A stretch of 64,000 bases of DNA from Eledone cirrhosa (taxonomy: Eukaryota). A model generated the notes under the pieces. It was not told where the DNA came from, ran no database searches, and saw only the letters and a program-made list of their open reading frames with translations. A program made the translations under genes and the position numbers. Below, one piece after another: positions 14,001 through 58,436 of the stretch (positions are counted from its first letter, which is position 1; every line of letters starts with the position of its first letter). The DNA lies in NCBI GenBank assembly GCA_964016885.1, contig OZ024741.1, positions 218,612,001 through 218,676,000 of the forward strand, given 5' to 3'.

Positions 14001-16655
14001 CATTATCACTACCACCAACATCACCTACATTATCACTACCACCACCATTACCTACATTATCACTACCACCAACATCACCTACATTATCACTACCACCACC
14101 ATCACCTACATTACCACTACCACCACATCACCTACATTACCACTACCACCACCATCACCTACATTACCACTATCAACACAATTACCTACATTACCACTAC
14201 CACCACCATTACCTACATTATCACTACCACCAACATCACCTACATTATCACTACCACCACCATTACCTACATTATCACTACCACCACCATCACCTACATT
14301 ACCACTACCACCACATCACCTACATTACCACTACCACCACCATCACCTACATTACCACTACCACCACCATTACCTACATTATCACTACCCCCAACATCAA
14401 CTACATTACCACTACCACCACATCACCTACATTACCACTACCACCACCATCACCTACATTACCACTATCAACACAATTACCTACATTATCACTACCACCA
14501 ACATCACCTACATTACCACTACCACCACATCACCTACATTACCACTACCACCACCATCACCTACATTATCACTACCAACACCATCACCTACATTATCACT
14601 TCCACCACCATCAGCTACATTACCACTACCACCACATCACCTACATTACCATTACCACCACCTTCACTACATCACCACTACCATCACCATCCCCTTCATA
14701 ACCACTACCACCACATCTCCTACATTACACTACCACCACCATCAACTACATTACCACTACTACCACCATCACATACATTACCACTACCACCACTATCACC
14801 TACGTTATCACCACCACCACCATCACCTACATTATCACTACCACCATTATCACCTACATTACCACTACCACCACCATCACCTTCATTACCACCATCACCA
14901 CCAACATTACCACTACCACTACCATCACCTATTTTACCACTACCACCACCACCACCTATATTACCACTACCACCACCATCACCTACATTATCACTACCAC
15001 CACCATCACCTACATTATCACTACCACCACCATCACCTACATTACCACTACCACCACCATCACCTACATTACCACTAGCAACACAATTACCTACATTATC
15101 ACTACCACCACCATTATCTACATTATCACCACCACCACCATCACCTACATTACCACTATCAACACAATTACCTACATTACCACTACCACCACCATCACCT
15201 ACATTACCACTATCAACACAATTACCTACATTACCACTACCACCACCATCACCTACATTACCACTATCAACACAATTACCTACATTATCACTACCACCAC
15301 CATCACCTACATTATCACTGCCACCAACATCCCCTACATTATCACTACCACCACAATTACCTACATTACCACTACCACCACATCAGCTACATTACCACTA
15401 CCACCACCATCACTACATTACCACTACCACCACCATCACCTCATTACCACTACCACCACATCACCTAAATTATCACTACCACCACCATCACTACATTACC
15501 ACTACCACCACCATCACCTCCATTATCACTACCACCACCATCACCTACATTATCACTACCACCACCATCACCTACATTACCACTACCACCACTATCACTA
15601 CCACCATCACCTACATTATCACTACCACCACCATAACATACATTACCACTACCACCACCATCACCAACACAATCACCTACATTACCACTACCACCACCAT
15701 CACCTACATTATCACTACCACCACCATCACCTACATTATCACTACCACCACCATCACATACATTACCACTACCACCACTATCACTACCACCATCACCTAC
15801 ATTATCACTACCACCACCATCACCTACATTACCACTACCACCACCATCACCTACATTACCACTACCACCACCATCACTACATTACCACTACCACCACCAT
15901 CACATACATTACCACTACCACCACCATCACTACATTACCACTACCACCACCATCACATACATTACCACTACCACCACCATCACATACATTACCACTACCA
16001 CCACCATCACCTACATTATCACTACCACCACCATCACTACATTACCACTACCACCACCATCACATACATTACCACTACCACCACCATCACTACATTACCA
16101 CTACCACCACCATCACTACATTACCACTACCACCACCATCACATACATTACCACTACCACCACCACCATCACATACATTATCACTACCACCACCATCACA
16201 TACATTACCACTACCACCACCATCACCTACATTATCACTACCACCATTATCACCTACATTACCACTACCACCACCATCACCTATATTACAACTACCACCA
16301 ACATCAACTACATTACCACTATCAACACAATCACCTACATTATCACTACCACCACCATTACCTAGATTATCACTACCACCACCATCACCTACCTTACCAC
16401 TACCACCACCATCACCTACATTATCACTACCACCACCATCACCTACATTATCACTACCACCACCATCACCTACATTACCACCATTACCACCATCACCACC
16501 ACCATCACCTACATTATCACTACCACCACCATCTCCTACATTACCACTACCCTCACCATCACCTACATTATCACTACCACCACCATCACCTACATTATCA
16601 CTACCACCACCATCACCTACATTATCACTACCACCACCATCACCAACATTATCAC
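2085..16655. repeat. About 14.5-kb minisatellite, 27-bp unit CCACCACCATCACCTACATTACCACTA with variants, intronic in the G-alpha gene
   Basis: Hundreds of near-identical 27-bp units; the + strand is almost G-free. It accounts for the long SPTLPLPPP / HHLHYHY / TTTITYI pseudo-ORFs. Internal higher-order duplication with a 2332-bp offset. Confidence 0.95.
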
Positions 16656-16812
16656 TTTACGTTCTGGGTTCAAATTCCATTGAGGTTAGCTTTGCCTTTC
16701 ATCCTTATGGAGTCGATAAAATAAAGTACCTGTAATGTACTGGGGACGATTTCAACAACTTACCCCACCCCCAAAATTGCTGGCTTTGTGCCTAAATCAG
16801 AAACCATTATTA
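16656..16812 (+). mobile_element. Nin/Deu-like SINE, 3' portion
   Basis: GGGTTCAAATTCC..GCCTTTCATCCTTATGGAGTCGATAAAATAAAGTACC..TGTGCCTAAATCAGAAACC. Confidence 0.75.
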
Positions 16813-16869: not shown

Positions 16870-17023
16870 AATAGCATGCAGGACAGTTTGCAAGCATTTA
16901 GTGATGTAGTCCATAACCGGTTTTTGGAAAATATGAACTTCATTCTGTTTCTAAACAAGGAAGATCTTTTCATTAGGAAATTAAAATTTACGAAGATGTC
17001 TAAAAATTTCCCTGATTACAGAG
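16870..17023 (+). CDS. Heterotrimeric G-protein alpha subunit (divergent, Gi/o-like), penultimate coding exon
   Basis: Acceptor ttctcttccttacag| and donor |gtaaat define a 154-bp exon encoding NSMQDSLQAFSDVVHNRFLENMNFILFLNKEDLFIRKLKFTKMSKNFPDYR. It contains the ILFLNKxDLF G4 box and matches the length and phase (0/1) of the homologous Gi/Gq exon beginning NRMxES. Confidence 0.93.
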
Positions 17024-17148: not shown

Positions 17149-17150
<2 letters not shown>

Positions 17151-17932
17151 CAAAAGGGATATTCAATTTGTTGGTAATTCAACAAATATATATATTTATA
17201 ACTGATTCAGAGCACTCAACAGATTTTCTGGAGTATAATATTCAATGATATTAAATAAATGGAAACTATATTTATAAAACCATATTTATTCTATTATATA
17301 TATTTCAAGGGTACCAAAACTTTGGTATGCTCTCATCAGATAAAATACAAAGTTTGTTTTATAAATATTGACATAACCAAGAAAACATACCTTAACGGTT
17401 CAAGTTGAACCAGGAAAACTTTTTTCTTGGTTACGTCAATATTTATAAAACAAACTTTGAATTTTATCTGATGAGAGTGTACTAAAGTTTTAGTACCGTC
17501 GAAATATATATAATAGAATAAATATCATCATCATCATCATCATCACCGTTTTACGTCCGTTCTTCCACGCTAGCATGGGTTAGACGGGTTGTCCTGTTGT
17601 GTGCAGTGTCTGGTCGGCTGACCACGCCTTGCTCATACAGGAACTGATCTGGCTTGATTTCTACAGCTGGATGCCCTTCCTAACACCAACCTCATTTACA
17701 GTGAGTGCTGGGTGCTTTTTCGTGGCGCCTACACGTCCACTTTACAGTGTGGGCTGGGTGCTTTTTTGCCGTGGCACCTCCACGACCACCTTGCGGTGGG
17801 GTGTGTGGGGGCATATTGTTTATATGCTTCAGCATGTACCCATGGGAGGTCGGGTACTCTGTATTACTGCGTGACGCCAGAAGTCACGGTCGTGATAAAT
17901 ATAGTTTCTATTTATTTAATATCATTGAGTAT
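17149..17932. mobile_element. Penelope-like fold-back element with a hammerhead in each arm; right arm interrupted by an RTE-tail insertion
   Basis: Arms about 17240-17381 and 17424-17525 plus 17895-17932. The + hammerhead spans 17461-17519 (ATTTTAT-CTGATGA..GAAA-TATATA-TA-ATAGAAT), with its mirror core at 17333-17339. Tail motif AGCACTCAA at 17211. Same family as 42265-42801. Confidence 0.75.
17526..17800 (-). mobile_element. RTE 3'UTR/tail-derived short element
   Basis: (CAT)n tail at 17526 followed by the reverse complement of GGTTGGTGTTAGGAAGGGCATCCAGCTGTAGAAA, which is also in the 3'UTR of the RTE at 21820-22329. Further copies at about 1310-1410, 18124-18290 (-) and 18365-18606 (+). 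Confidence 0.75.
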
Positions 17933-17944
17933 ATATATATATAT

Positions 17945-18345
17945 ATATATAATATTATTCGCAATATTAACAAATGAAAAATATTCGCATAATCAAAATA
18001 TATACTTTATTATATATATTTCAAAAGTACTGTGTTGTTTTTATTTCAGTACGTCCTTATCAGACAATCATATATTTTGGCTGATGAGGACGTACTGAAA
18101 AAACAACACAGTACCTTTGAAATCATCATCATCATCATCATTTTACGTCCGCTTTTCCCTGCTTGCAAGGGTGGGACGGGAACTGATTCTGGCTTGATTT
18201 CTACAGCTGGATGCCCTTCCTAACACCAACCTCATTTACAGTGAGTGCTGGGTGCTTTTTTGCCATGGCACCTCCACGACCACTTTGCAGTATATATTTT
18301 GATTATGTGAATATTTTTCATTTGTTAACATTTCGAATAATATTA
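17945..18345. mobile_element. Fold-back element with CTGATGA..GAAA core; right arm interrupted by an RTE-tail insertion (18124-18290)
   Basis: Arms about 17950-18068 and 18076-18123 plus 18289-18345. CTGATGA-GGACGTACT-GAAA at about 18081-18100; stems I and III are not convincing. Confidence 0.55.
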
Positions 18346-19126: not shown

Positions 19127-19166
<40 letters not shown>

Positions 19167-19268
19167 TGAATATAAAAGAAAAACGGACACAGATATATAC
19201 ATATATGTGTTCAAATTATTGTAAGAGACTATCTGATATATATATTTCTAACTCAATATATACCTTTG

Positions 19269-19356: not shown

Positions 19357-22329
19357 CGAGACAATCACTTGATCACCTATAGATCGGGGGAACACACAAG
19401 CCAGGTAGATTATATCCTTACCAGAAGACGTGACAGAGTGTCTGTTGTTAACACTAAATCCCACCCCCATGAAGAATTCACCTCCCAACATAGACTGATA
19501 ATTAGCGACCTCATAGTCAGGACGAGACGTACTAGACAGCGGAAGAGGACTATCCTCAGGAGAAAAATATGGAAGCTAAAGGACCCCACAGCCAGAAATA
19601 AATTCCAAAGCATATTACTTGACGCTTTCGACAGTAAGGAAGAGCAATTAGAGTCGTATAATATAGAGGAACAGTGGGAATTCCTGAGAGCAAACCTGCT
19701 GACGGCGGCAGACGAAGTCTGTGGCTGGAGCAGGCCTGTAGGTAGGAGGAGAGTAACATGGTGGTGGAACAGTAAGGTGGAGGAGTCAATTAAGGCCAAA
19801 AAGCAGGCTTGGAAAGTATGGCGGGATGGGGGAAGTAGAGAAGACTATCAAGTGGCCAAGAGGGAAGCTAGGAGACAAGTGTACTTCGCAAGAAGGGAAG
19901 CAGAGGAAAGAAAGTTCAAGCATGTTCTACAACGTGAGGACCAAAAACGTGAGGTGTTCAGGATTGCCAGGCAATGTGTCAAGGAAAACCGTGATATTGT
20001 CGGGGAGAAGTGTGTACTTAACGATGATGGCATACTTGCCATCACCGACGCTGATAAGAAGGTAGCTTGGAAGTGTCACTACGAAAGGCTTCTAAATGAG
20101 GAGAACAAATGGGAGAAAGACAGTCTCCCCCAGATCGATCCAATAGAGGGACCAGCAGTGTTAGTTGAAGGTAGTATAATAAGTAAGGCAATCAAAGATA
20201 TGAAGACGGGTAAGGCGGCTGGGCCTTCGGAAATAGTTGCTGAGATGCTGAAGGCATCTGGTTCGGTGGGACACACCATGGTCACCCGGATAGTTAACCA
20301 AGTCGTACAGAATGGGGTTGTTCCGAAGGAATGGCGTAGCAGCATCATCGTTAACTGCTATAAGGGAAAAGGAGATGCCCTAGATAGGAGTAACTATAGA
20401 GGCATTAAATTAATCGACCAGGTCATGAAGGTCACCGAAAAAGTAATAGCGCAACTAATCAGAGAGAGAATTGATCTAGATGAAATGCAGTTCGGGTTTG
20501 TGTCAGGCAAAAGTACCACAGACGCTCTTTTCATTGTACAACAACTACAGGAGAAGTACCTAGCTAAAAGTAAACCCCTATACTTAGCTTTCGTCGACTT
20601 GGAGAAAGCCTTCGACAGAGTCCCCCGTTCCATTATCTGGTGGTCTCTTAGAAAACTAGGTGTTGACGAATGGCTTGTGAGAGCTATACAAGCCATGTAT
20701 AAAGAAACAGTCAGTAAGGTTAGAATTAACAACGAATATAGTGAAGAGTTTAGCGTAAAAGTTGGTGTCCATCAGGGCTCTGTTCTTAGCCCCCTACTAT
20801 TTATTATTGCCCTTCAGGCTATAACAGAGGAGTTCAAGACCGGCTGCCCATGGGAACTCCTATACGCAGATGATCTAACGCTCATAGCTGAATCAATGAC
20901 CGAACTAGAGAAGAAATTCCAAACGTGGAAGCACGGCCTAGAATCAAAAGGCCTTAAAATTAACCTGGCTAAGACTAAAGTTCTAGTTTGTAGGAAAGAA
21001 AATAAGGCGGCGGTCCCATCGGGGAAATGGCCATGCTCAGTGTGTAGGAAAGGCGTAGGTAGAAACTCCATTTTATGTCCCAAATGCAAAGTATGGGTGC
21101 ATAAAAGATGTAGTGGGATCACAGGTAAGCTAACTAAGAACATAGATTTTACATGTGGCCGGTGCTCTGGTGCAATAAGTAGCAGAAAGTGCCCACAAAA
21201 TACTAGCTCCTTCAACTGCGCAGAGGGTTCTATAGAAATAGTGGACAGCTTCCGTTATCTGGGTGACAAAATCAGCAGTGGGGGAGGGTGCTCTGAAAGT
21301 ACAGTAGCTAGAGTCAGAACTGGATGGAAAAAGTTCAGAGAGCTTATACCACTATTAGCCGCTAGAGGGTTCTCCCTAAAAATGAAAGGCAGGTTATACG
21401 ATGCCTGCATACGAACAGCAATGCTGCATGGCAGTGAGACCTGGGCATTGTGTGCAGAGGATATACGCAGACTAGAGAGGAACGAAGCTTGCATGCTCCG
21501 CTGGATGTGCAATAGTAATATACGTGAACGGCAAAGCATAAACGAACTAAGGAAAAAATTAGAAATAAGAGGGATCAGATGTTGTTTACTCGAGAGAAGG
21601 CTACGTTGGTACGGTCACGTGATGCGCATGAAAGACGACAGCTGTATAACAAAGTGCAGGGCAATAAAGATAGACGGTAGCCACGGAGTAGGCAGACCCA
21701 GAAAAACATGGGACGAGCTGATAAATTCCGACCTCACACGCTTACACCTCTCCAAGACAATGTCACTGGACCGAGACCTTTGGCGGTACTCAGTAATAGA
21801 GAAGACCCGCCTTACCTAAATACAAAGTAAAAACCTACTACAGTCAGTAGGCATCTCTATCAAAACACACCCCCGTCCCACCACCCTCCACCCCACCCAC
21901 ACCGCCCCTTTCAATGTAAAGTTATGTTGGTCCCACAACATCCAGGCCGAAACAAATGAGATCGTGTAGGTGTCACGACAAAAAACACACAGTCCACGCT
22001 GTAAATGTGGCCGTGTAGGCAACACGGTAAAAACCTCCCAGCCCCACACTGTAAATGTGGTTGGTGTTAGGAAGGGCATCCAGCTGTAGAAAACCCGCCA
22101 GACAGTCCACGCTGTAATGTGGCCGTGTAGGCAACACGGTAAAAACCTCCCAGCCCCACACTGTAAATGTGGTTGGTGTTAGGAAGGGCATCCAACTGTA
22201 GAAAACCCGCCAGACAGTCCTATGCGAGCAAGACAACCACTCTTGCCTCAAGTGGGAAAACCCCCGTCCAAACCCATGCAAGCGTGGAACACGGACGCTA
22301 AACCTGATGATGATGATGATGATGATGAT
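19356..22329 (+). mobile_element. 5'-truncated RTE-clade non-LTR retrotransposon inserted in (TA)n within the G-alpha intron
   Basis: Open frame to 21819, a 3'UTR with an internal duplication of about 116 bp, a (GAT)n tail to about 22329, and (TA)n on both sides. Confidence 0.95.
19369..21819 (+). CDS. RTE ORF: APE endonuclease C-terminal remnant, reverse transcriptase and PHD-like Cys/His finger (5'-incomplete, not a real start)
   Basis: ITYRSG..SQVDYIL (end of APE), NYRGIKL, QFGF, AFVDLEKAFDRVPR, GVHQGSVLSPLLF, LYADD, CSVC..CPKC..HKRC..CGRC, FRYLG, HGSETW, RRLRWYGHVMRM, GRPRKTW. No stops over 816 codons. Confidence 0.95.
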   Translation: MITYRSGEHTSQVDYILTRRRDRVSVVNTKSHPHEEFTSQHRLIISDLIVRTRRTRQRKRTILRRKIWKLKDPTARNKFQSILLDAFDSKEEQLESYNIEEQWEFLRANLLTAADEVCGWSRPVGRRRVTWWWNSKVEESIKAKKQAWKVWRDGGSREDYQVAKREARRQVYFARREAEERKFKHVLQREDQKREVFRIARQCVKENRDIVGEKCVLNDDGILAITDADKKVAWKCHYERLLNEENKWEKDSLPQIDPIEGPAVLVEGSIISKAIKDMKTGKAAGPSEIVAEMLKASGSVGHTMVTRIVNQVVQNGVVPKEWRSSIIVNCYKGKGDALDRSNYRGIKLIDQVMKVTEKVIAQLIRERIDLDEMQFGFVSGKSTTDALFIVQQLQEKYLAKSKPLYLAFVDLEKAFDRVPRSIIWWSLRKLGVDEWLVRAIQAMYKETVSKVRINNEYSEEFSVKVGVHQGSVLSPLLFIIALQAITEEFKTGCPWELLYADDLTLIAESMTELEKKFQTWKHGLESKGLKINLAKTKVLVCRKENKAAVPSGKWPCSVCRKGVGRNSILCPKCKVWVHKRCSGITGKLTKNIDFTCGRCSGAISSRKCPQNTSSFNCAEGSIEIVDSFRYLGDKISSGGGCSESTVARVRTGWKKFRELIPLLAARGFSLKMKGRLYDACIRTAMLHGSETWALCAEDIRRLERNEACMLRWMCNSNIRERQSINELRKKLEIRGIRCCLLERRLRWYGHVMRMKDDSCITKCRAIKIDGSHGVGRPRKTWDELINSDLTRLHLSKTMSLDRDLWRYSVIEKTRLT

Positions 22330-24790: not shown

Positions 24791-24855
24791 ATGTCTTATT
24801 TATGTATTTATGTATTTCTATATTTATTTATTATTTATCTGTGTTTGCATTTCAG

Positions 24856-25040
24856 AGGACAACACCCCTGAGCAGTGTCAGGAGTATATCCGGGAGCAGT
24901 TTTTAGAAAAGACACCAAACAAGGAGAACATCTACACACATATAACCTGTGCTGTGGACGAGATAAAAATGAGGGAAGTTCTGGATAACTTGCTCGAAAT
25001 GATAGTTGAATTCAACACCCGAAAGTGTGGCACTTTCTAG
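24856..25040 (+). CDS. G-protein alpha subunit, final coding exon
   Basis: Acceptor tttgcatttcag|; the phase-1 join with 17023 gives EDNTPEQCQEYIREQFLEKTPNKENIYTHITCAVDEIKMREVLDNLLEMIVEFNTRKCGTF*. It contains the YTHxTCAxD G5 box and a C-terminal CGxF. Confidence 0.93.
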
Positions 25041-26980: not shown

Positions 26981-27270
26981 GTAGAAGGTGAGTAATATTG
27001 TAGAACAATAAAACTATGCATATATCAGATAAGTAGCACTCAACAGTTGGTAGAACTGGAGTATATATAATAAAGAGGAATTAAAAGATGGTTAAAAGAG
27101 TTCCATATATTTTATTATGTGCATTTCGAATACAAAATCATCCTGGGACAAAAATTATTATTTTATCTGATGAGAACACAATTTTTGCCCCAGGATGATT
27201 TTGTATTTGAAATGCGCATAATAAAATATATGGAACTCTTTTAACCATCTTTTAATTCCTCTTTATTATA
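26981..27270. mobile_element. Penelope-like fold-back with a complete hammerhead
   Basis: Arms about 27063-27155 and 27181-27270. Hammerhead 27159-27228: TATTTTAT-CTGATGA-GAACACAA..TTGTATTT-GAAA-TGCGCA-TA-ATAAAATA. Tail motif AGCACTCAA at 27035. (TA)n on both sides. Confidence 0.8.
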
Positions 27271-27290
27271 TATATATATATATATATATA

Positions 27291-27504
27291 TAGAAGTGGT
27301 TACACAACAGTTAGTTCACCATACCGAGAACAATTGTTTCACCTTAGCGGATCCTCAGCTCGTAATTGAGCTGAGGATCCGCTAAGGTGAAACAATTGTT
27401 CTCGGTATGGTGAACTAACTGTTGTGTAACCACTTCTACCTAACTCGTCCCATGGACTGATTGCTCTACCACTACGGATATTACCTTCCAATGTTCTACC
27501 ATAC

Positions 27505-27508
<4 letters not shown>
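27291..27508. mobile_element. Penelope-like fold-back with minimal hammerheads
   Basis: Perfect inverted repeat of about 71 bp (27291-27361 / 27368-27438). GAG-CTGAGGA-TCCGCTAAGGT-GAAAC-AATT-GT-T-CTC at 27368-27403. Unpaired tail 27439-27508; (TA)n flanks. Confidence 0.75.
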
Positions 27509-28393: not shown

Positions 28394-28408
28394 TATATAT
28401 ATATATAT

Positions 28409-29698
28409 ATATCTTTAAGTCGTTTGGAAGCCTCGACAATGCAAATGGGTAAATCTCCGGGTAACAAGATCCGGTGGTGGAGAGAGAGATGTAAGTGGGT
28501 GTACGTTGAGATGCGTGGTGTGTAAAGATGTGTAAATGTGTAGAAGAAAGAAGGGAAGAGTATAAAGGATATAATAAAAATAACAACACAAGAGAGAGTT
28601 ACCTTGGGAGAGAATTAATAGTCCCTATATATTTCGGATTCACATCCATCAACTTGGGGTTTTTTTATCCGGGGTAAAGGTTGTCTGTCGGACATGTGCG
28701 AAACGCGTCCTCCGCTGTTTGTTGTTTTGAATATCTGAGGTATTCGGCAGAGCGCGCGTGCGCGTGAAATGGGGTCGGTCTGGCAGAGGTCAGCGGCCGA
28801 ATGAGGGAGTGGCGTGGCGCTAGCTGTCAGTCCATTCTCTGCCTGTTTGTTAAATGGGCCTCGTCTTTCTGGAAACACATAGACAAATGCGGAAACAAAG
28901 ACGGAAGGCCCATTGTCACAATTCTAGCGACTGAAAGAAACGTCGACACGTTACGTATCAAGGAAGCACTTTTTATCAAACGCCTGCAACCGCAAATAAA
29001 CAACCGATCAGAGAGAAGCGAAATGAGAAGGCTGGTTTAAGTTAACAAACGATGTAGCAACACACAACACACGCACACACAAACGAGACAACTACACACA
29101 CACAGTAGCATTCCACCATACGAACATACTACACTGCCAATACAGAGGAACAAGGCAACAACACACGCACACTCAAGCGAGACAACAACACACGCACACA
29201 CACACAGTAACATTTAACAAACAGGCAGAGAATGGACTGACAGCTAGCGTCACCCCATTCCATCATTCGGCCGCTGACCTCTGCCCGACCGACCCCATTT
29301 CACGCGCACGCGCGCTCTGCCAAATACCTCAGATATTCAAAACAACAAACAGCGGAGGACGCGTTTCGCACCTGTCCGACAGAAAACCTTTACCCCGGAA
29401 AAAAAACCCAGTTGATGGATGTGAATCCGAAATATATAGGGACTATTAAATCTCTCCCAAGGTAGCTCTCTCTTGTGTTGTTATTTTTATTTTATCCTTT
29501 ATACTCTTCCCTTCTTTCTTCTACACATTTACACATCTTTACACACCACGCATCTCAACGTACACCCACTTACATCTCTCTCTCCACCACCGGATCTTGT
29601 TACCCGGAGATTTACCCATTTGCATTGTCGAGGCTTCCAAACGACTTAAAGATATTTATTTATTATTCCACAATGCTTGAAGCAAACTTCAATACTCT

Positions 29699-29700
<2 letters not shown>
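28409..29700 (+). mobile_element. Penelope-like retroelement 3' end: inverted pseudo-LTR, GIY-YIG C-terminus, pseudo-LTR and tail
   Basis: Arms of about 445 bp (28409-28856 / 29211-29655) flank the ORF end at 28858-29040. Unpaired tail 29656-29700; (TA)n on both sides. Confidence 0.85.
28858..29040 (+). pseudogene. C-terminal half of a Penelope-type GIY-YIG endonuclease (5'-truncated)
   Basis: ASSFWKHIDKC..IVTILATERNVDTLRIKEALFIKRLQPQINNRSE* fits the S..H..C..IL..E..R.xEAxxI..PxxN pattern of Penelope endonucleases. Confidence 0.75.
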
Positions 29701-38232: not shown

Positions 38233-38256
38233 TACTATATATATGTATATACACAC

Positions 38257-38540
38257 GTTGGTAGAAATCCGTAGAGGAAAGATCAAGGAACACAGTGCTC
38301 AATATGGAAGCGAGCTTGTTTAGAATAAACAAAGTTTCATACACTTAACATGTATGTGCTTCCATTGGTTTCAGGGTCTAGTTATGGCCACCACTGTATA
38401 TTGGAAGAGGCACACTTTGTCCATGTGCCCAAATGAAGGGCCAGTTTAAAAGTGCCTCTTCCAATATACACCAGTAGCAATGACTGGATGCCAAAACCAA
38501 TGATAGCACATACATGTTAAGTGTAAGAAACTTTGTTTAC
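38257..38540. mobile_element. Diverged fold-back element with tail motif
   Basis: Arms about 38326-38411 and 38453-38539. AGTGCTCAA at 38294 in the unpaired left tail; (TA)n flanks. Confidence 0.6.
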
Positions 38541-38542
38541 GC

Positions 38543-38630
<88 letters not shown>

Positions 38631-38810
38631 AGGACGATTTGTTAAGTCTTCATTATGTTTATTGATTGGTGACACGTGTTTCACTATTGATCAGCTCAAG
38701 GTTCAATCTGTATTGATCTGGCCCGACTCTGGAATCAAAAGCTTGTCGGACCTCTGCTGTTGTGATGACAGAATTACACCCTCCCTGGATGTATATATAT
38801 ATATGTATAT

Positions 38811-39157
38811 AAGAATGGAAAACAGCACAGAAGTATATCTAAAGACTCTTTTTTTCTTGTTTCTTCTTTAATCCGTCAAAGTGTTATTATTGAAAAAAGG
38901 AGAACGACAATTTTTAAAACAAAAGGGGTTTTATAAAATATCAAAATATTACCTGTTTTGATAATCCATCTTATTAAATATTTGGTAAGATGGATTATAT
39001 CGGAATTGTTTTTCTCATCTTTCAATAATAACGCTTTGATGGATTAAAGAAGAAAAAAAGAAGAAAAAGATTCTTTAAATATACTTATGTGCTGTTTTCC
39101 ATTCTTACTTTTGTTTCTATAACCTCTGTTTTGTATAGAAGCTTACCCCCTTTTCAA
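38811..39157. mobile_element. Diverged fold-back element with an unpaired right tail
   Basis: AAGAATGGAAAACAGCAC at 38811 pairs with GTGCTGTTTTCCATTCTT ending about 39107. Inner hairpin ATAATCCATCTTA / TAAGATGGATTAT; (TA)n flanks. Confidence 0.55.
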
Positions 39158-39181
39158 ATATATATATATATCATATATGTA

Positions 39182-39567
<386 letters not shown>

Positions 39568-41648: not shown

Positions 41649-42264
41649 TGGCTGCCAACTCGTTTTCGAGTACGGCCACTACTTTATATCCATGTAGGAG
41701 AACCCCTACCGATGCGCCGAACGAATGTGACTTTTTAGTCCAGCCAGCAACTTGAAAACTCTGGTACAAACACTACACTTGTGACCATTATTGACACATA
41801 GTGCAGGGCCCATGGTACCATGTGACGACAAGTGCAGAGAGATCTCCAGATATAAAGCAATGCCTGTGCCGTGAAGCTTTTATAGTGAGCAAAGGCACTG
41901 CACAAAGCCAGTCCCACTCTCTTAACCAAGATGATATTTACCAAAAAGAAGAACAAGTCAACATCATTGGATACCATCAAGGTTGCAGGTGTTACATCAG
42001 AGTTTTCCTTCTCCTAGAATTCTGCCTTGACAAAGGCTAAGGGGTCATCTCTCCCAGTGATTTTGGATGGCCATTGACTCTTAAGAGCTCCTTTGCCCTT
42101 TGACAGGTTTTGTTTTTAGTCCTGCAGGATGTCCAAAGTCACCCTCCTCACCAAGAAACCTTGGTGGGGTTGCCAGTTTAGTCGCCAACGACCCGACCAT
42201 GAGACAGGTTGTACTGGGATACATGTTACCAGTAGCACCAACTGGTGACCTGACATATATATAT

Positions 42265-42798
42265 ATACAATATATTAACAAATGGAAACTATATTTATAA
42301 AACGATATTTATTTTATTATACATATTTCAAGGGCCACCAAGGTAATTAGGGTGCGCTTTCATCAGATAAAATACAATACAGATTGGTTTTATAAATAAA
42401 TATTGACATACCCTGAAAAAAGACAACCTTAACGGTTGGAGCTTCCTGGATAGTGGAGATATTAGATTTATTGAGGGTGATAGAAAATTATGATTGAGTA
42501 TGCAAATAAATCTAATATCTCCACTATCCAGGAAGCTCCAACCGTTAACGTTGTCTTTTTTCAGGATATGTCAATATTTATTTATAAAACAAATCTGTAT
42601 TGTATTTTATCTGATGAAATTGCACCATAATTTGCCTTGGTGGCCCTTGAAATATGTATAATAAAATAAATATGGTTTTATAAATATAGTTTCCATTTGT
42701 TAATATATTGTATATTTACTCCATAATCGGTTGAGTGCTTTATATCAGTTATAAAAATGTTTAAGCTTATTGAATCCCACCAAATTAAATATAACCTC

Positions 42799-42801
<3 letters not shown>
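42265..42801. mobile_element. Penelope-like fold-back with a hammerhead in each arm
   Basis: Arms about 42265-42471 and 42505-42713. The + hammerhead spans 42603-42668 (TATTTTAT-CTGATGA..GAAA-TATGTA-TA-ATAAAATA), with its mirror core at 42360-42366. Tail motif TTGAGTGCT at 42731. Confidence 0.8.
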
Positions 42802-43693: not shown

Positions 43694-43744
43694 TATATAT
43701 ATATATACAAGTGGAAGGTTAGTAAAATCTTTCCCCATATATAT

Positions 43745-44750
43745 ACTAGACATGAAAAATGCGCAAGCTCAAAAGTGCCACAGAATGTTATAATAAACCT
43801 TCAAAAGTGTGGGACTAGAGTTGTTGCTAAAAAATATTGTAATCATTATATATCGTACATTCTGTGGCATCCTTTATAAAAATAGCTTAAACCAACGAAG
43901 CCTTTATTTTTACGCTATTTCACTTAGTTAATTCTTAGAGTGTAACATATAAAAATATGATTTACAACTATAAAATAAATTAATTAATATAATAACAGAG
44001 CTGCGGAGCTGAAATTTAGGAAATAATAGAGTATCGGATCCTGAGTTGGAGCCAGTCAATTTTTGGCCGACTCCGCAGCCCTGTATAATACATTTCATAT
44101 TAAAGTTATTAATAAACCTATTTTACACTTCATGCAAATTACCACGAGATATTGATATTAGATATAAGATACAGCGCAATATCTACAGCTGTAAAAGTAC
44201 GAAAGCGAAGTAATAATAAGTGGCTTAAGGTAATTCCAATATGAAAGTTTGTAGTGATAAAAATTTGATAATGCAATACGATTGTTAATATTATAGTTCT
44301 ATGAAAATGTAACAATAGATAACTAAATTATTTTACTATTAGTATATTTAAGAAATTATCATTATAGATTTGATCGTTCATATAAGCATCATATTAAGTT
44401 TCAACACAATTATTTTGTTACTATGAGTATATGATAATAATATTACGTAATTATTTATAGCTTTTATTACATTAAACATAGATGTATTTATTTTTATATG
44501 TTACACTCTAAGAATTAACTAAGTGAAATAGCGTAAAAATAAAGGCTTCGTTGGTTTAAGCTATTTTTATAAAGGATGCCACAGAATGTACGATATATAA
44601 TGATTACAATATTTTTTAGCAACAACTCTAGTCCCACACTTTTGAAGGTTTATTATAACATTCTGTGGCACTTTTGAGCTTGCGCATTTTTCATGTCTAG
44701 TTTAATATTTTTTTAAGGCAACGCTTGTAATAACTCTAGTTAAACAGGAT
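43745..44750. mobile_element. Element with identical 213-bp inverted arms and a short unpaired right tail
   Basis: 43745-43957 is the reverse complement of 44489-44701; the spacer is about 530 bp and AT-rich. Confidence 0.7.
43996..44083. mobile_element. Small hAT-like MITE nested in the preceding element
   Basis: Terminal inverted repeats CAGAGCTGCGGAG / CTCCGCAGCCCTG with a near 8-bp target duplication (TATAATAA / TATAATAC). Confidence 0.55.
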
Positions 44751-45902: not shown

Positions 45903-47314
45903 TCTAGTCCTTCGCTCAAGATTAATCTATAAGTTTAGATGTTTGCCTTCGTTTAAGTAAATATTACAGTAAGATTTTTAATATAAACAACTACAAAAAA
46001 CAATTAATATTAAAACGAAAAAATTATCAATGATAAAAGAAGCGGATGCAACTTTTTTTTTTATAAAGTTATATTCCTGTTTCTTTAAAGAACATTTCAT
46101 TTTTGTTCTATTGTAGGCGAAATAATGCAATGGTTTAATAGGGAAGATATAACTTACGAATTATGTCTCTAACCGTGTAACGCTTTTTAAGTAGATAACT
46201 ACAATTGAAAATACTAAAGAAATGGAACCAACAATTCAATTTGAAAGTCGTCTAGTGACAGTGTATTACTGGTACTTTATTTTATCGACCCCGTAACGAT
46301 GAAAGGCAAAAATGCAAATGCTTAAAATTTAAATTGCCTTAATTCTATCGTCTGCTGTTTCATTAAAGGGAGATTATCGTCTGTATTTAATTCTATCGTC
46401 TACTGTTCCACTAAACAGATATACCTCCACTATCGTCTCTATTTATACATTTTAACTTATAACTTATACACATTTGATTTGAAATATTTTATCTAGTCCC
46501 CCCTCTCAATATTATGATGATTTCTTTCGAATGAAACAGTTCTAGTCCTGTAGAAGCCATTTATATATATAATTGAACTGAGTTAAAAATTCACAATATT
46601 TATAATTAAATAAGCTCATATATATATGTGTGTATTTATCTGTTTATTGTATTATATATAATGTGTGTATATACAGGATGTCCCCCAAAAATATATACAC
46701 ACTTCAACAGCATTCTAATAACTATTGCCTGTACAGGTAATCAAAGTGTCAATCGAATGTTAGTTTCGTGTTTTAACAGTACAAATTTACAATACACACA
46801 TAAAACCAGTGTATATACATACATGAGTGTGTATACACATACATGAATGTGTATATACAATATATATGTATATATATATAGACACATATATTCACTGTGC
46901 AACGGTACATTAAAATATAGATGCGGGAGAGGGGGGGGGGTGTATATATAGGGGCGCTGGGGATAAAGGAGTGTAAAGCGTGTGTAATTGATATATTGAA
47001 GGAGAGGAGCGTGCAGCGATAGAGTAACAAATATATAGAGAGGGGGAGAGATGGTATTGAAGGGGAGGAGTGCAAAGCGAAAGAGTAAGAGATATATATA
47101 GAGACGGAACAGATAGAGAGAAACAGGCGTAAGTAACAGTGGAAGAGATATAGAGAGAGGTACTCTGATTGGTTGAAAATTAGCCAATGACATACGATCA
47201 CCACCACCACGGCTATCCCCGAAAAAATTTTAAAGAAGCTAGGCATATATGTTAGAACACGAAAAGTGAACATTCTGTTGTTTCACACTTTTCGTGTTCT
47301 AACAGATATATATA

Positions 47315-47479
47315 AAGAGTCAGGACCCCGACAGCTAGATCCGAACAGAGTTCGGATCTAGCTGTCGAAACGGCCGGTGCTCAGCCGTCAGGGTCTTGAC
47401 TCTTTCCCTGTTACCCACATCCTAAGTATCGAGTACTCTGGTGCGTTATGGTCCAGCTGGTTTCTTACCGCACTTTCTT

Positions 47480-49030: not shown

Positions 49031-49398
49031 GATTTATATATAAATGTATGGAGAGATATATGTATATGTATAGAGAGATATATGTATCGATATATATATA
49101 TATCGAGAGATATATGTATAAGTATATATAGAGAGAAAGGGCCATATATCTATGAGAAAACAATATATTGTATATACACAGAGCACATATTTCAAAATTT
49201 ATATATATATAAATATATAAAACAAATAGTTATCGCCCTACATGGCTGAATACAATAAATGTATTCTGAGATTTTCGAATATTGATAACAATATTCAATT
49301 CATTTGCAATTATGCAAATGGCCTCTTCTAAGCCATGTCAGTAGAATGAGCCCTCATTCTTGCTCTTGTGTTGGCTTATATATGTATATATATATATA

Positions 49399-50425
49399 AT
49401 TGAATAAACAAGAGAGATGAACACTAATATAAACATACATGTGTTCGAATTGTAAGGACCAAATTTGCTAGGGTGAAAAAATACTAACTACAGCAATATG
49501 GTTTGTTATCCTTAATGACACGTGCGTTAATTCATATCGTACACAATTCATTCTCTAATATTTTTAGAAGTGAAAGGATCACTAATTTCTCAACAACTAC
49601 TGAGGAGCAGAGAAATGTGAGAACTTCACTTAATAAGTCATTGCGAAACAGTCTCCAACACTGTCTAAGGTCTGTTATTTTTCTTAATTTTTCTTAATTT
49701 AATATTTAAAGTTAAGGATAACAAACTATATTGCTGTAGTTAGTATTTTTTCACCCTAGCAAATTTGGTCGTTACGATTCGAACACATGCATGTTTATAT
49801 TAGTGTTCATCTCTCTTGTTTATTCAATCATATTGTACAGCTCAGAAAAGCTTTTTTCTTAGAGCTATTTAATTGTAAGAGACTACCCTGAGTTCTTAAC
49901 TCAATATATATTTGTCGACTCCATCATGTAGAGCTAATTTTTAATGTCCTGTCAGCCAGGCTGCTATTTTTAGCGGCAGGGAATTTCGAGACAAGCTGGG
50001 TTCCGAATGACACGTGCGATAATTCATATCGTACACAATTCATTCTCTAATATTTTTAGAAGTGAAAGGATCACTAATTTCTCAACAACTACTGAGGAGC
50101 AGAGAAACGTGAGAACTTCACTTAATAAGTCGTTGCGAAACAGTCTCCAACACCGTCTAGTTGTTACCAGGCATTTTGCCCAATATAGGTCTGTTATTTT
50201 TCTTAATTTTTCTTAATTTAATATTTAAAGTTAAGGATAACAAACTATATTGTTGTAGTTAGTATTTTTCACCCTAGCAAATTTGGTTGTTACGATTCGA
50301 ACACATGCATGTTTATATTAGTGTTCATCTCTCTTGTTTATTCAATCATATTGTACGGCTTGGAAAAACTTTTTTCTTAGAGCTATTTAATTGTAAGAGA
50401 CTACCCTGAGTTCTTAACTCAATAT
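49399..50425 (+). mobile_element. Penelope-like element: short inverted pseudo-LTR plus two tandem pseudo-LTRs, each with a hammerhead core
   Basis: 49399-49513 is inverted relative to about 49712-49828. Direct repeats at about 49514-49910 and 50006-50425. Hammerhead cores at 49600 and 50092; (TA)n flanks. Confidence 0.85.
50084..50165 (+). ncRNA. Type I hammerhead ribozyme (predicted)
   Basis: Stem I AACAACTA/TAGTTGTT (8 bp), core CTGAGGA 50092-50098, stem II GCA/TGC, GAAA 50137-50140, stem III ACAG/CCGT (one mismatch), GTC cleavage triplet 50155-50157. Confidence 0.75.
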
Positions 50426-50492
50426 ATATATATTGCAAGCAGGGAAGAGCGGACGTAAAATGATGATGATGATGATGATATATATATATTTA

Positions 50493-50762
50493 ATTAGAAA
50501 GTGAACAACACAATACATAACTACTCCATTACCAAAGGTTTCTGGTCCCTAGACAATATTAATATACATCTGGATCGTTCATCAGACAGTGATAACATCT
50601 CTGTCTGATGAACAATCCAGACATATATTAATATTGTCTAGGGACCAGAAACCTTTGGTAATCGAGTAATTATGTATTGTGTTGTTCACTTTCTAATATA
50701 ATAGCTCTGTTCTATACGTAGAGCACTCTTTTTTCATTGCCTTTTGTTTGGAATTACCTAAC
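50493..50762. mobile_element. Fold-back element with hammerhead-like cores
   Basis: Arms about 50493-50589 and 50601-50697. CTGATGA at 50605 and GAAACC-TTT-GGT-A at 50648-50660. Tail motif TAGAGCACT at about 50719. Confidence 0.65.
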
Positions 50763-50777
50763 ATATATATATATATA

Positions 50778-52975
50778 TATAATTTATGCCAGTTCCTTTT
50801 CTACATATCGAACATGGCCATTTCCCTAACGGAATCAGAGTTTTGTCCTCTTTTCTACTTATCAACACTTTTGCCTTAGCTAGGTTCACTCTCAGTCCTC
50901 TTGATTCCAACTGCTGTTTCCATAACCAGAATTTATTCTCTAGCTCCTCTACTGATTCTGCTATAAGAACCAGATCATCAGCATAGAGAAGTTCCCATAG
51001 ACAGCCAGTCTTAAACACCTCTGTTATGGCTTGGAGGACTATAATGAACAAAAACAGGCTGAGGACCGAACCCTGATGTACTCCTACTTGTATCTGGAAT
51101 TCCTAACTAAACTTCATTCCTACCCTTTACTGACAACACCTTTGTACAAAGCTTGCACTGTCCTCACAAGCCATTCCTCAACACCTAGTTTCCTTGGGGA
51201 CCACCAGATGACAGATCGGGGTACCCTATCAAAGGCCTTCTCTAGGTCAACAAAAGCTAAGTATAGTGGCTTGTTCTTCTCTAAGAACCTCTCTTGTAGT
51301 TGTCTCACTAAGAAGAGGGCATCTGTTGTACTTTTCCCAGGCACAAAACCAAACTGCATCTCATCTAGTTTGACCCTTTCTCTAATTAGTTGCGCTAATA
51401 TCCTTTCTGCCACTTGCATAACCTGATCCATCAGTTTTAAGCCCCTATAATTGCTCCTCTCCAGAGCATCACCTTTACCTTTGTAGCAATTTATGAGAAT
51501 ACTGCTGCACCAGTCTTTGGGTATACAGCCATATATAACCTGATTGATGATGCATGCAACCAGTTTAGTGCCTACGTCCCCTGATGCGTTCAGCATCTCA
51601 GCAACTAACCCTAACGGTCCAGCAGCCTTACCATTTTTCATTCCCTTAATCGTCTCTTGGACACTATATTCGTCAATCTCAATAGCTGGTCCCTCTGTCA
51701 GATCTACTGGGGGTAATTTCTCTCTCTCCCATTCGTTCTCCACATTCATCAGTCTCTCATAATGACATTTCCCGGCCTCCTTTTTCCAATCATTCGTGAC
51801 ACTAAGTACACCAGCATCATTCCTGACACACTTATCTCCAACAACATCCTGATTTGCAATGACACACTGCCTTGCAATACGGAACACCACACGTCTCTGA
51901 TCTTCCCGTCGCAGACCATTGGCAAACGTCCTACTCTCAGCCTCCCTGCATGTTAAGTACACCTGACGTCTAGCTTCTCCTTTAGCAGCTGTATATCCTT
52001 CTCTACTGCCACCATTTTTCCAAGCATTCCATGCTAGTCTTTTGTCTCTAATGGCCCTATCTACCATGCTGTTCCACCACCAGGTCACTCTCTGTCTGGT
52101 TGGAGCTCTGCTCCAGCCACAAGTTTCTTCAGTAGCCTGTAGTAAGTTGTCCCGTAAGAAATCCCAGTTATCATCTATGTCATACGACTCTAATGCAGAT
52201 CTTGAGTACACAAGAGATGTGGTGGGATAGCAGGCAAACTAACAGGTAGGGAGAAGTACATATGCAGTAGATGTACAGGGAAATTTGACAGTAGAAGTCG
52301 CATTGATAGACACATTTTTCAAATACAGGTGGGTGCTATAGAAGTGGTTGATAGCTTCCGGTACCTAGGTGATCAAATTAGCATGGGGGTGGGGGGGGGG
52401 GGGGGGTTCCGAGGCCATAGTATCTAGAATAAGGATGGGTTGGAAGAAGTTTAGGGAGCTGCTTCCTCTGCTGACGAAGAAGGGTTTCTTCCTGCGTATG
52501 AAAGGCCGGTTATATGATGCCTGTGTGAGGTGCATGGTAGTAAGACATGGACAGCAACAGCAGAGGATATGAGACGGTTGGAGAGAAATGAGGCAAGCAT
52601 GCTTCGTTTGATGTGCAATGTCAATGTGTGTGAACGACCAAGCATAGACGAGTTGAGAAAGAAACTGGGTATAAGAGGGATAAGTTGTGATGTGCAGGAG
52701 AGAAGGCTGAGATGGTATAGACATGTGATGCGCATGGAGGATGACCGATGGGTGAAGAAGTGCCAAGAAATGCCAGTTGAAGGAAGACGTAGTAGAGGCA
52801 GACCACGAAAAACATGGGCGGAGGCGGTGAGAGCAAACCTCAGATCGCTGAAGCTCACGGTGAAGATGACGAAGGACCGTGACAAGTGGAGAGATGCTGC
52901 GCTGAATAGGACACAACCCACCCTTGCAAGCAGTGGAAAGCGGACGTAAAATGACGATGATGATGATAATGATGA
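50778..52975. mobile_element. RTE LINE with an inverted 5' segment (twin-priming structure), frameshifted
   Basis: 50778-52191 (-) encodes ESYDIDDNWDF through RT/YADD to CSICRKGTGIN. From about 52192 (+) the sequence continues VHKRCGG..YLG..GRPRKTW to the (GAT)n tail. Confidence 0.9.
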
Positions 52976-53331
52976 TATGTATATACATTAAATATGGAGA
53001 ACATGACAAGAGAAAAAAGACAGATAAAAAATAAAGAAAAAAACACTTCAATCTTGGTCCTGATTTTATTCTTCTTTTACAAAAAGGACAACAAAATAAT
53101 AATAATAATAATATCAATAATAATAATAATAATAATAGTAATAATAGTCTGGCTTAAAAATCAATTCTTTTTAATAGTTGAATTACAAAGTAATATGCTG
53201 AAAAGTTGAATATATTTTCAAACAATGTTATCAGAATATGGAGGGAGGGGGGCATGGAAAAAAAAAAAGGCAGTCAATGTATCTCTGTGTGTATAGTAGT
53301 AGTAGAGAAAGTTCCCTAATATGAACGTAAT

Positions 53332-53364
<33 letters not shown>

Positions 53365-53366
<2 letters not shown>

Positions 53367-53575
53367 TCAATGTAGAAATGACTTCAACAGGACTAGAACT
53401 GTTTCATTTATATGAAATCATCAGGAATTGTATTCCTAATGATTTCATATGAATGAAACAGTTCTACTCCTGTAGGAGTCATTTCTATATGAAATAAATA
53501 GGTTTATTATAATGTATGGAGTACCTTACTTAACTGTGGTTTCTTCCTGATCTCCTTTGGAAACCCATTCTTAAC
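53365..53575. mobile_element. Fold-back element with hammerhead-like cores (family of 1420-1550)
   Basis: Arms about 53372-53427 and 53431-53488. The - arm reads CTGATGA-TTTC..AAAT-GAAACAG..CTGT-T. Tail motif TGGAGTACC. Confidence 0.65.
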
Positions 53576-53606
<31 letters not shown>

Positions 53607-53609
<3 letters not shown>

Positions 53610-53812
53610 GGAAAATGTTCAAGACCCGGACGGCAGAACTCAAGCAGCTTCGACGGCTATTTCTGGACTGAAATAGTCCAGAAATAGCCGTCGAAATGGC
53701 TTGAGCTCTGCTGTCGGGGTCTTGAACATTTTCCTATTACCCACTCTACTACCCAAAGTATTGAGTACTCTGGTGCGTTATGGTCCACCTGGTTCCTTAC
53801 CACACTTCCTTC

Positions 53813-54858: not shown

Positions 54859-55051
54859 ATAGGAACGAGTAGGACTCCGACGGCTGAGCTCAAGCCGTTT
54901 CGACGGCTAATTCTGGACTAAATTAGCCGTCAAAACGGCTTGAGCTCAGCCGTCGGGTCCTACTCATTCCTATTACCTACTCTACTACCCTAAGTATTGA
55001 GTACTTTGGTGCATTATGGTCCATCTGGTTCCTTACCACATTTCCTTCGTT
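54859..55051. mobile_element. Fold-back element (39231 family)
   Basis: Arms about 54859-54912 and 54921-54973; tail motif TTGAGTACT at 54997. Confidence 0.75.
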
Positions 55052-55221: not shown

Positions 55222-55710
55222 TATATTGTTATATTTGGGGAGGGTCATGTTGTTATATTTCCAGAAATATATAATTAAACACACTCACTGTTTGGTTTGG
55301 ATTGGTTTTCGCTTCTGTATATTTTATATCCCTATAGTTAATTTAGCTGGCAATCAATGTTTATCATTGATTGACAAACAGTTAAAAATGTATGTTTCCT
55401 CATGTATTACAATACAACAGGAAGAAACATAATAGTGCCATTGATGATGTCACAGGTGTGTGATGAAAGAACTTTGATAGATATATTTATATCTGTATTT
55501 TTAACCATTGGTCAATCAATGATGAACATTGATTGCCAGCTAAATTAACTATAGGGATATACAATATACAGAAGTGAGAACTAATCCAAACCAAATAGTG
55601 AGTGTGTTTTATTATATATTTCTGGCAATATTATAACAATATGACCCTCCCCAAATATAACAATATTTGTTTCAACTCACGATTTCATATAAAAAACCTT
55701 GCAAAACAAA
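55222..55710. mobile_element. Diverged fold-back element with an unpaired right tail
   Basis: About 55222-55389 is the imperfect reverse complement of about 55497-55666. Confidence 0.65.
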
Positions 55711-55908: not shown

Positions 55909-56469
55909 GGTGTTGATTGAACGCCTGCCTAACACTAACTTCCCTCCAACTTTATAACAGCAGTAGTAGGTGTTGATTGAACGCCTGCCTAACACTAACT
56001 TCCCTCCAACTTTATAACAGCAGTAGTAGGTGTTGATTGAACGCCTGCCTAACACTAACTTCCCTCCAACTTTATAACAGCAGTAGTAGGTGTTGATTGA
56101 ACGCCTGCCTAACACTAACTTCCCTCCAACTTTATAACAGCAGTAGTAGGTGTTGATTGAACGCCTGCCTAACACTAACTTCCCTCCAACTTTATAACAG
56201 CAGTAGTAGGTGTTGATTGAACGCCTGCCTAACACTAACTTCCCTCCAACTTTATAACAGCAGTAGTAGGTGTTGATTGAACGCCTGCCTAACACTAACT
56301 TCCCTCCAACTTTATAACAGCAGTAGTAGGTGTTGATTGAACGCCTGCCTAACACTAACTTCCCTCCAACTTTATAACAGCAGTAGTAGGTGTTGATTGA
56401 ACGCCTGCCTAACACTAACTTCCCTCCAACTTTATAACAGCAGTAGTAGGTGTTGATTGAACGCCTGCC
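55909..56469. repeat. Perfect 60-bp tandem repeat, about 9.3 copies
   Basis: Identical unit GGTGTTGATTGAACGCCTGCCTAACACTAACTTCCCTCCAACTTTATAACAGCAGTAGTA. Confidence 0.95.
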
Positions 56470-58162: not shown

Positions 58163-58427
58163 AAAGAATAGAGGTGTAACACACGAGTTGTGATATATTG
58201 GTAAAAGGAAAAGAAAATGCTGACAAATTGTTCCCAGTGAAAAATAGTTTAATTAGTAATAAGTAAAAATTAGTAATAAGTATTGGTTAGTATTCAATTT
58301 TGGTTTTAAAACCAAAACTTTAAAACCAAAACTGAATACTAACCAATACTTATTACTAATTTTTACTTATTCCTAATTAAACTATTTTTCACTGGGAACA
58401 ATTTGTCAGCATTTTCTTTTCCTTTTA

Positions 58428-58436
<9 letters not shown>
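58159..58436. mobile_element. Near-perfect fold-back element with an unpaired left tail
   Basis: Arms about 58193-58311 and 58319-58436; tail 58159-58192; (TA)n flanks. Confidence 0.7.

Follow-up and report, generated by a model that had tools for sequence, protein, structure and literature searches.

A probable Penelope-type insertion with tandem hammerhead repeats, an inverted arm and a one-sided tail in Eledone cirrhosa

Insertions of Penelope-like elements (PLEs) have been described as partial tandems truncated at the 5' end, in many cases beside an inverted copy and with a tail at one end; the same account reports a bias toward microsatellites, including (TA)n, and a tail of 30-40 bp (PMC8557442). 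The partial tandems are reported to normally follow a full-length copy (PMC8969392). Work on the PLE enzyme from Anolis describes cleavage of AT-rich DNA on both strands, two cDNA start sites that lie downstream of the hammerhead, are used on both strands and delimit the tail, and insertion in vitro that is independent of hammerhead cleavage (PMC11167929). Hammerhead ribozymes within PLE pseudo-LTRs have been catalogued, including opposite-strand pairs 100-700 bp apart, with long helix III forms assigned to fungal and protist PLEs and metazoan motifs described as mostly minimal or palindromic (PMC4209133).

Animal retrozymes are another closely related system. They have been defined, and their circular RNAs of 170-400 nt demonstrated (PMC7229834), and a recent preprint argues that they are non-autonomous PLE derivatives and that an active retrozyme requires two complete hammerheads (bioRxiv 10.64898/2026.07.22.740005). 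The link drawn there between retrozymes and PLEs has so far come from co-occurrence and pseudo-LTR similarity. Both PLE pseudo-LTRs with hammerheads and non-coding animal repeats with hammerheads are known already. For O. vulgaris, 31 recently active Penelope-like families are reported in an article whose main text does not mention ribozymes (PMC13282606). Here we analyze a 64,000-nt stretch of the Eledone cirrhosa genome (the window) containing two tandem hammerhead-bearing repeats, which the original prediction had read as a retrozyme-like unit.

Architecture and history of the insertion

Pairwise alignment recovered the two proposed direct repeats with hammerhead cores (A upstream, B downstream) and their GTC triplets at 49663-49665 and 50155-50157, and the spacer put at about 95 bp measured 94 nt, with no second copy in the window (Table 1). 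Over 397 aligned nt the repeats differ by 10 substitutions, a 1-nt indel and a 27-nt deletion in A, which corresponds to B 50160-50186, begins 2 nt past the upstream cleavage triplet and sits, at window position 49668, between short direct repeats. The offset between A and B is 492 nt ahead of this deletion and 518-519 nt beyond it. Because the deletion removed the 3' strand of stem I of the upstream hammerhead, the intact unit is 518-519 nt rather than 492 nt, so that the 492-nt period holds as the spacing between triplets and fails for the undeleted unit. The locus carries 1.8 direct copies of this 518-nt unit, which has a GC content of 34%.

Table 1. Coordinates of the insertion and of related and neighboring features in the window
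Feature	Position	Strand	Basis or remark
Left (TA)n target microsatellite	49378-49399	.	Sequence
Inverted, 5'-truncated arm, 122 nt	49394-49515	-	Reverse complement of 49712-49833; as delimited in the insertion, 49400-49515 against about 49712-49828
Repeat A (upstream, 5'-truncated pseudo-LTR copy with 27-nt deletion)	49514-49911	+	Pairwise alignment
Upstream type I hammerhead	49592-49667	+	Core 49600-49606 and 49645-49648, GTC 49663-49665
Tail of repeat A, between the two end points	49829-49905	+	Folds as two hairpins
Spacer, 94 nt	49912-50005	+	Single-copy in window, no coding remnant found
Repeat B (downstream, undeleted copy of the pseudo-LTR)	50006-50429	+	Pairwise alignment
Downstream type I hammerhead	50084-50165	+	Descriptor scan; predicted cut after 50157
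Tail of repeat B, only at the right end of the insertion	50347-50425	+	End-point comparison, folding
Right (TA)n target microsatellite	50422-50433	.	Sequence; unrelated insertions beyond
Mini-copy of the family, diverged and bounded by (TA)n runs	19162-19268	.	Alignments versus shuffles
Five further type I hammerheads	17339, 17468, 27167, 42366, 42611	-, +, +, -, +	Strict scan
PLE-type inverted insertions holding those five hammerheads	17149-17525, 26983-27274, 42255-42800	.	Strict scan
Inverted insertion, minimal hammerhead-like motif at 27371+, 69-71-nt tail	27291-27508	.	
Insertion with 456-nt inverted arms, 37-49-nt tail	28401-29700	.	Surrounds GIY-YIG-like remnant
Family with hammerhead 3' halves, long helix III	39309-39469, 47349-47420, 53607-53737, 54859-54973		
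Another family with hammerhead 3' halves, long helix III	1490-1567, 46515-46573, 53360-53500		
Further inverted, (TA)n-flanked insertions with one-sided extension	50487-50762, 58190-58430, 43737-44750, 55223-55710, 38245-38546, 38810-39160		
LINE-type RT ORF and relatives	19357-21819; 50776-53153; 3-1106	+; -; 	

Two further features had gone unremarked in the original prediction, although the first lies within its coordinates. An inverted arm, 96% identical to A and 93% to B, abuts the upstream repeat with a 2-nt overlap at 49514-49515. The arm stops without a tail at a proximal end point, at the (TA)n run and 75-80 nt short of where the direct repeats end, and the second overlooked feature is this 75-80-nt extension, which is confined to the direct repeats. 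No separate inverted arm accompanies B, and a 7-nt TA run marks the junction of A with the spacer. We rejected classification as a MITE since the inverted arms fail to reach both termini and a tail occupies the right end.

Flanking (TA)n runs, an inverted 5'-truncated copy adjacent to the 5' end, a partial tandem of pseudo-LTRs, a tail at one end, a type I hammerhead within the pseudo-LTR and an AT-rich target together match a PLE insertion, and the locus is very probably of this type. The labels "pseudo-LTR" and "non-autonomous, hammerhead-bearing" suit it well, but the reading as a retrozyme array gives way to a PLE-type insertion of 1.8 copies that has an inverted arm and a tail on one side. 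Local tandem duplication of a single truncated PLE remnant after insertion would suit the abundance of tandem repeats in the window; this is extremely unlikely, as there is no second copy of the spacer and the duplication would have to begin exactly at the inversion junction yet exclude the arm.

The copies have probably decayed since insertion. Half of the A/B substitutions (5 of 10) are transitions at CpG, more than expected by chance (p 1e-4 to 8e-4), and in four of these it is A that has lost the CpG, which points to post-insertion mutation in DNA. Divergence is 2.5% between A and B and 4% between the inverted arm and A; on an octopus calibration taken from PMC13282606, roughly 1.3-2% per copy would correspond to a few million years. 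Pointing the other way, five of the six substitutions in predicted helices preserve pairing in both copies, and four of the 10 differences fall within 12 nt of the tail hairpin, a pattern suggesting that A and B may stem from different source copies. Repeats that started out identical are predicted by circular and linear tandem templates alike. The 27-nt deletion reflects either slippage or the copying of cleaved RNA, and in the boldest reading its start 2 nt past the cleavage site could be the scar of reverse transcription across a self-cleaved molecule.

A sequence of events consistent with this architecture would begin with an RNA of more than unit length, whether tandem read-through or circular, bound by a PLE reverse transcriptase-endonuclease supplied in trans, probably from an autonomous PLE. 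The enzyme would nick both strands of a (TA)n run and carry out target-primed reverse transcription. A first cDNA starting at the distal point (50425) would copy a full unit and continue into a following one, which would account for B, the spacer and A; a second cDNA, starting on the opposite strand at the proximal point 75-80 nt upstream, would give the inverted arm, which lacks a tail. Joining of the two 5' ends through the 2-nt overlap would follow, and later CpG decay and the 27-nt deletion would have stripped stem I from the upstream ribozyme. Each of these steps, from RNA binding and nicking to the cDNA starts and the joining, is inferred from the arrangement of the copies.

Hammerhead motifs and the proposed circular RNA

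The descriptor scan reproduced the perfect 8-bp stem I claimed for the downstream hammerhead (50084-50091 with 50158-50165), together with a core at 50092-50098 and 50137-50140 and a branched stem II with a 4-bp base. Its stem III consists of 2+2 bp flanking one A.C mismatch, closed by a 7-nt non-palindromic loop. Stem I is the open helix, which makes the motif type I. The description of the upstream motif also held, with alignment and descriptor both giving a perfect 5-bp stem III and a stem I reduced to 2 bp by deletion of its 3' strand. Under the type I descriptor, stems I, II and III therefore measure 8, 4 and 2 bp in B and 2, 4 and 5 bp in A. The perfect stem III of A is probably a product of CpG decay and not the ancestral state, judging from the substitutions between the copies.

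Chance was controlled with 5000 dinucleotide shuffles of the 518-nt unit and 40 shuffles of the window. Only one of the 5000 unit shuffles contained a core with stem I of at least 3 bp and stem II of at least 4 bp, none had stem I of at least 6 bp, and the 40 window shuffles gave no hits. The Rfam hammerhead models returned nothing at gathering score and were also absent among the 10 weak rows, and bacterial and archaeal genomes scanned with a hammerhead pattern yielded no matches. The minimum-energy fold of B differs from the hammerhead fold (z -0.10 and -0.17), and the hammerhead fold lies 7.1 kcal/mol above the ensemble for B and 9.2 kcal/mol for A. Five other hammerheads in the window pay similar penalties (5.2-7.2 kcal/mol), which keeps the free-folding result from refuting B. 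The upstream hammerhead is predicted to be crippled, and its downstream counterpart may still be capable of a single cut, after 50157.

These properties bear directly on the proposal that both hammerheads cut and that the 492-nt RNA between them is ligated into a circle. The two cores do follow one another on the same strand, A could still fold a stem I interrupted by two bulges, and circles are known from animal retrozyme dimers (PMC7229834). The 492-nt segment folded as a circle gives z -2.67 against 60 shuffles, but 5 of 11 control segments score lower than the monomer (58-60% paired, z -2.5 to -2.7). A 492-nt circle also requires cleavage by the damaged upstream ribozyme, the one with the larger folding penalty, and in a read-through RNA 122 nt of A would be engaged in pairing with the inverted arm. 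Even for predicted dimers in Xenopus, one of nine was cleaved in vitro according to the preprint (bioRxiv 10.64898/2026.07.22.740005). We therefore consider a working dimer at this locus very unlikely, and with it the ~490-nt circular RNA; the deletion of the upstream stem I means that an intact parent would instead give 518-519 nt. That the parent family makes circles is itself rather doubtful.

Related insertions and the nature of the parent element

The window is repeat-rich animal DNA with RT-bearing ORFs and G-alpha exons, and its SINE and RTE tails are, we presume, octopus-like. A 14-kb C-rich minisatellite occupies 2320-16656 (period 27 nt, ~525 copies, GC skew near -0.97), and a 60-nt perfect tandem repeat occupies 55909-56469 (9.4 copies, 100% identical). 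The LINE-type RT ORF encodes 820 aa, its RT domain is followed by a PHD finger, and it has two diverged relatives. Exons for the C-terminus of a G-protein alpha subunit lie at ~16870-17020 and 24850-25000 on the plus strand, with the element ~24 kb downstream.

Within this sequence we found a diverged mini-copy of the same family, in which an inverted arm running to the proximal point (19162-19217) is joined to a direct piece running to the distal point (19214-19268). It shares both end points with the main element, and in each of three alignments none of 5000 shuffles reached the observed score. The mini-copy extends 4 nt past the TA stretch, matching the first bases of the spacer, a weak and post hoc match.

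The end layout recurs more widely. Among 36 local inverted repeats in the window, 17 (two of them from the main element) have one side within 18 nt of (TA)n and the other 37-83 nt short of it. In 15 selected inverted insertions, main element included, the one-sided extension measures 44-91 nt, and 11 of the 15 tails have 2-8 nt of TA-like, element-internal bases at the proximal end point. A 7-nt motif located 19-28 nt into the tail is common to eight of the 15 (three from one family), against ~0.2 expected; the comparison is post hoc, and the exact match is absent from the main element. One possible role for this motif is recognition by the PLE enzyme.

Hammerheads accompany several of these insertions. 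A strict scan returned seven hits in the window, namely B, five in such insertions and a weak one at 18081; the five have stem I of 7-8 bp and a short, mostly palindromic loop III. In the two families with hammerhead 3' halves, helix III is 4-6 bp and the 5' core has mostly been severed by the inversion junction, so that the long helix III form occurs in three families in the window, counting that of the main element. Independent insertions adjoining within one (TA)n run also occur, and the insertion at 50487 lies directly 3' of the main element.

One neighbor may preserve part of a coding PLE. The insertion at 28401-29700 includes a 60-aa GIY-YIG-like C-terminus at 28858-29037 on the plus strand (scored as protein-like by Atlas, recognition 3238, 0.96 at best; the closest cluster with a Pfam label is GIY-YIG, in 15% of its members, at 0.89), a label for which Pfam, PDB and a homolog search returned nothing and which serves as a lead only. 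A degenerate hammerhead-like motif, recognized by eye near 29413-29440, follows ~370 nt from the stop codon. The insertion probably represents the 3' terminus of an autonomous PLE.

The main element itself is not an autonomous PLE. It has no ORF combining a telomerase-like RT with GIY-YIG, and the absence of an ORF noted in the original prediction extends to any coding remnant in the frames tested. Its longest stop-free frame is 80 aa, with nothing in homolog searches or Atlas (recognition 1225), and Pfam gave no hits for nine of the 29 listed stop-free frames. A 96-residue frame over the tail and spacer resembled a PLE N-terminus by eye and was rejected when a search of 1.84 billion proteins returned no hits. 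The analysis found neither an autonomous partner nor an RT for this family.

With just 180 nt of B lying upstream of the core, the missing ORF fits a short unit and a truncated long PLE equally well. The locus might hold stacked 5'-truncated copies of a long autonomous PLE, with the spacer and B as its last 514 nt, the inverted arm and A contributed either through template jumping or when another copy inserted in that TA run, and the 518-nt period an accident of truncation; in a variant, the ORF was lost by internal deletion within the spacer. Truncation at the 5' end is described as usual among PLE insertions (PMC8557442, bioRxiv 10.64898/2026.07.22.740005), 180 nt is too short to demand an ORF remnant, and the neighbor at 28401-29700 has a longer stretch, ~370 nt, between its stop codon and hammerhead-like motif. 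The TA run at the A/spacer junction, in a window where neighboring insertions share TA runs, and the clustering of A/B differences in the tail hairpin also favor this account. However, the TA-like internal bases at most proximal ends mean that the distal TA run need not be a target, and the mini-copy match continues beyond that run. Divergence between A and B is also not above that between the arm and A, and B lacks an arm. We regard stacked or internally deleted copies of a long PLE as the main rival, at a lower probability than the short unit.

The alternative, that the short ~518-nt unit was the real template, is one we favor slightly. The same 4-nt mini-copy match counts weakly for it, as does the reported tendency of partial tandems to follow full-length copies (PMC8969392). 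The locus is likely an old, decayed insertion of a non-coding mini-PLE and a dead copy. A fuller reconstruction is improbable as a whole: a retrozyme-like mini-PLE parent of ~518 nt, probably cephalopod, that circularized its unit RNA, whose insertions keep the whole PLE integration scar of inverted arm, two-site tail and (TA)n target, and whose long helix III hammerhead was competent as a monomer to release unit-length RNA.

Comparison with retrozymes and other PLEs

Plant LTR retrozymes are described as having, like this locus, a short non-coding spacer with a ribozyme-bearing repeat on either side (PMC7229834, bioRxiv 10.64898/2026.07.22.740005), but with type III hammerheads, PBS/PPT and 4-bp target duplications, whereas the motif here is type I and the locus has an inverted arm and lies in (TA)n. 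Non-autonomous Chlamys PLEs such as MRC1 share the ORF-less organization, the pseudo-LTRs and the head-to-tail copies; they are green-algal and reported mostly without canonical hammerheads (PMC8557442), and four motifs sought in the supplement of that article were absent from it.

The non-LTR retrozymes of animals have the same non-coding head-to-tail repeat and one type I hammerhead per unit (PMC7229834, bioRxiv 10.64898/2026.07.22.740005), and our locus conforms in having a non-coding tandem of 1.8 units with two cores. Its 518-nt unit is inside the 51-972 bp range given for retrozyme consensus sequences (bioRxiv 10.64898/2026.07.22.740005) and exceeds the 170-400-nt circles (PMC7229834). 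With one of the two ribozymes complete, the locus falls short of the two hammerheads expected of an active retrozyme, although its family may operate in the manner of a non-autonomous PLE or retrozyme. The inverted arm, tail and microsatellite target also set it apart, as the words "inverted" and "microsatellite" do not appear in the main text of PMC7229834.

A search of the open literature found nothing on this family or on octopus PLE hammerheads, and this rich collection of long-tailed insertions with hammerheads may not yet have been described in the host. A single decayed copy carries little weight alone and has its value as a lead. An ORF-less 518-nt unit with PLE scars would connect retrozymes with PLEs; if the fuller reconstruction is true, it would be structural evidence that PLE enzymes mobilize animal retrozymes, and the mini-PLE would be a minimal template for testing that mobilization.

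A close match is with PLE pseudo-LTR insertions (PMC8557442, PMC4209133, PMC11167929), for which the partial tandem, inverted 5'-truncated copy, one-sided tail, (TA)n target and type I hammerhead upstream of the end points are all described. The locus differs from them in having no RT/GIY-YIG ORF between its repeats and a tail of 75-80 nt instead of 30-40 bp, and it differs from most metazoan PLEs in a hammerhead whose long, non-palindromic helix III resembles the fungal and protist forms (PMC4209133).
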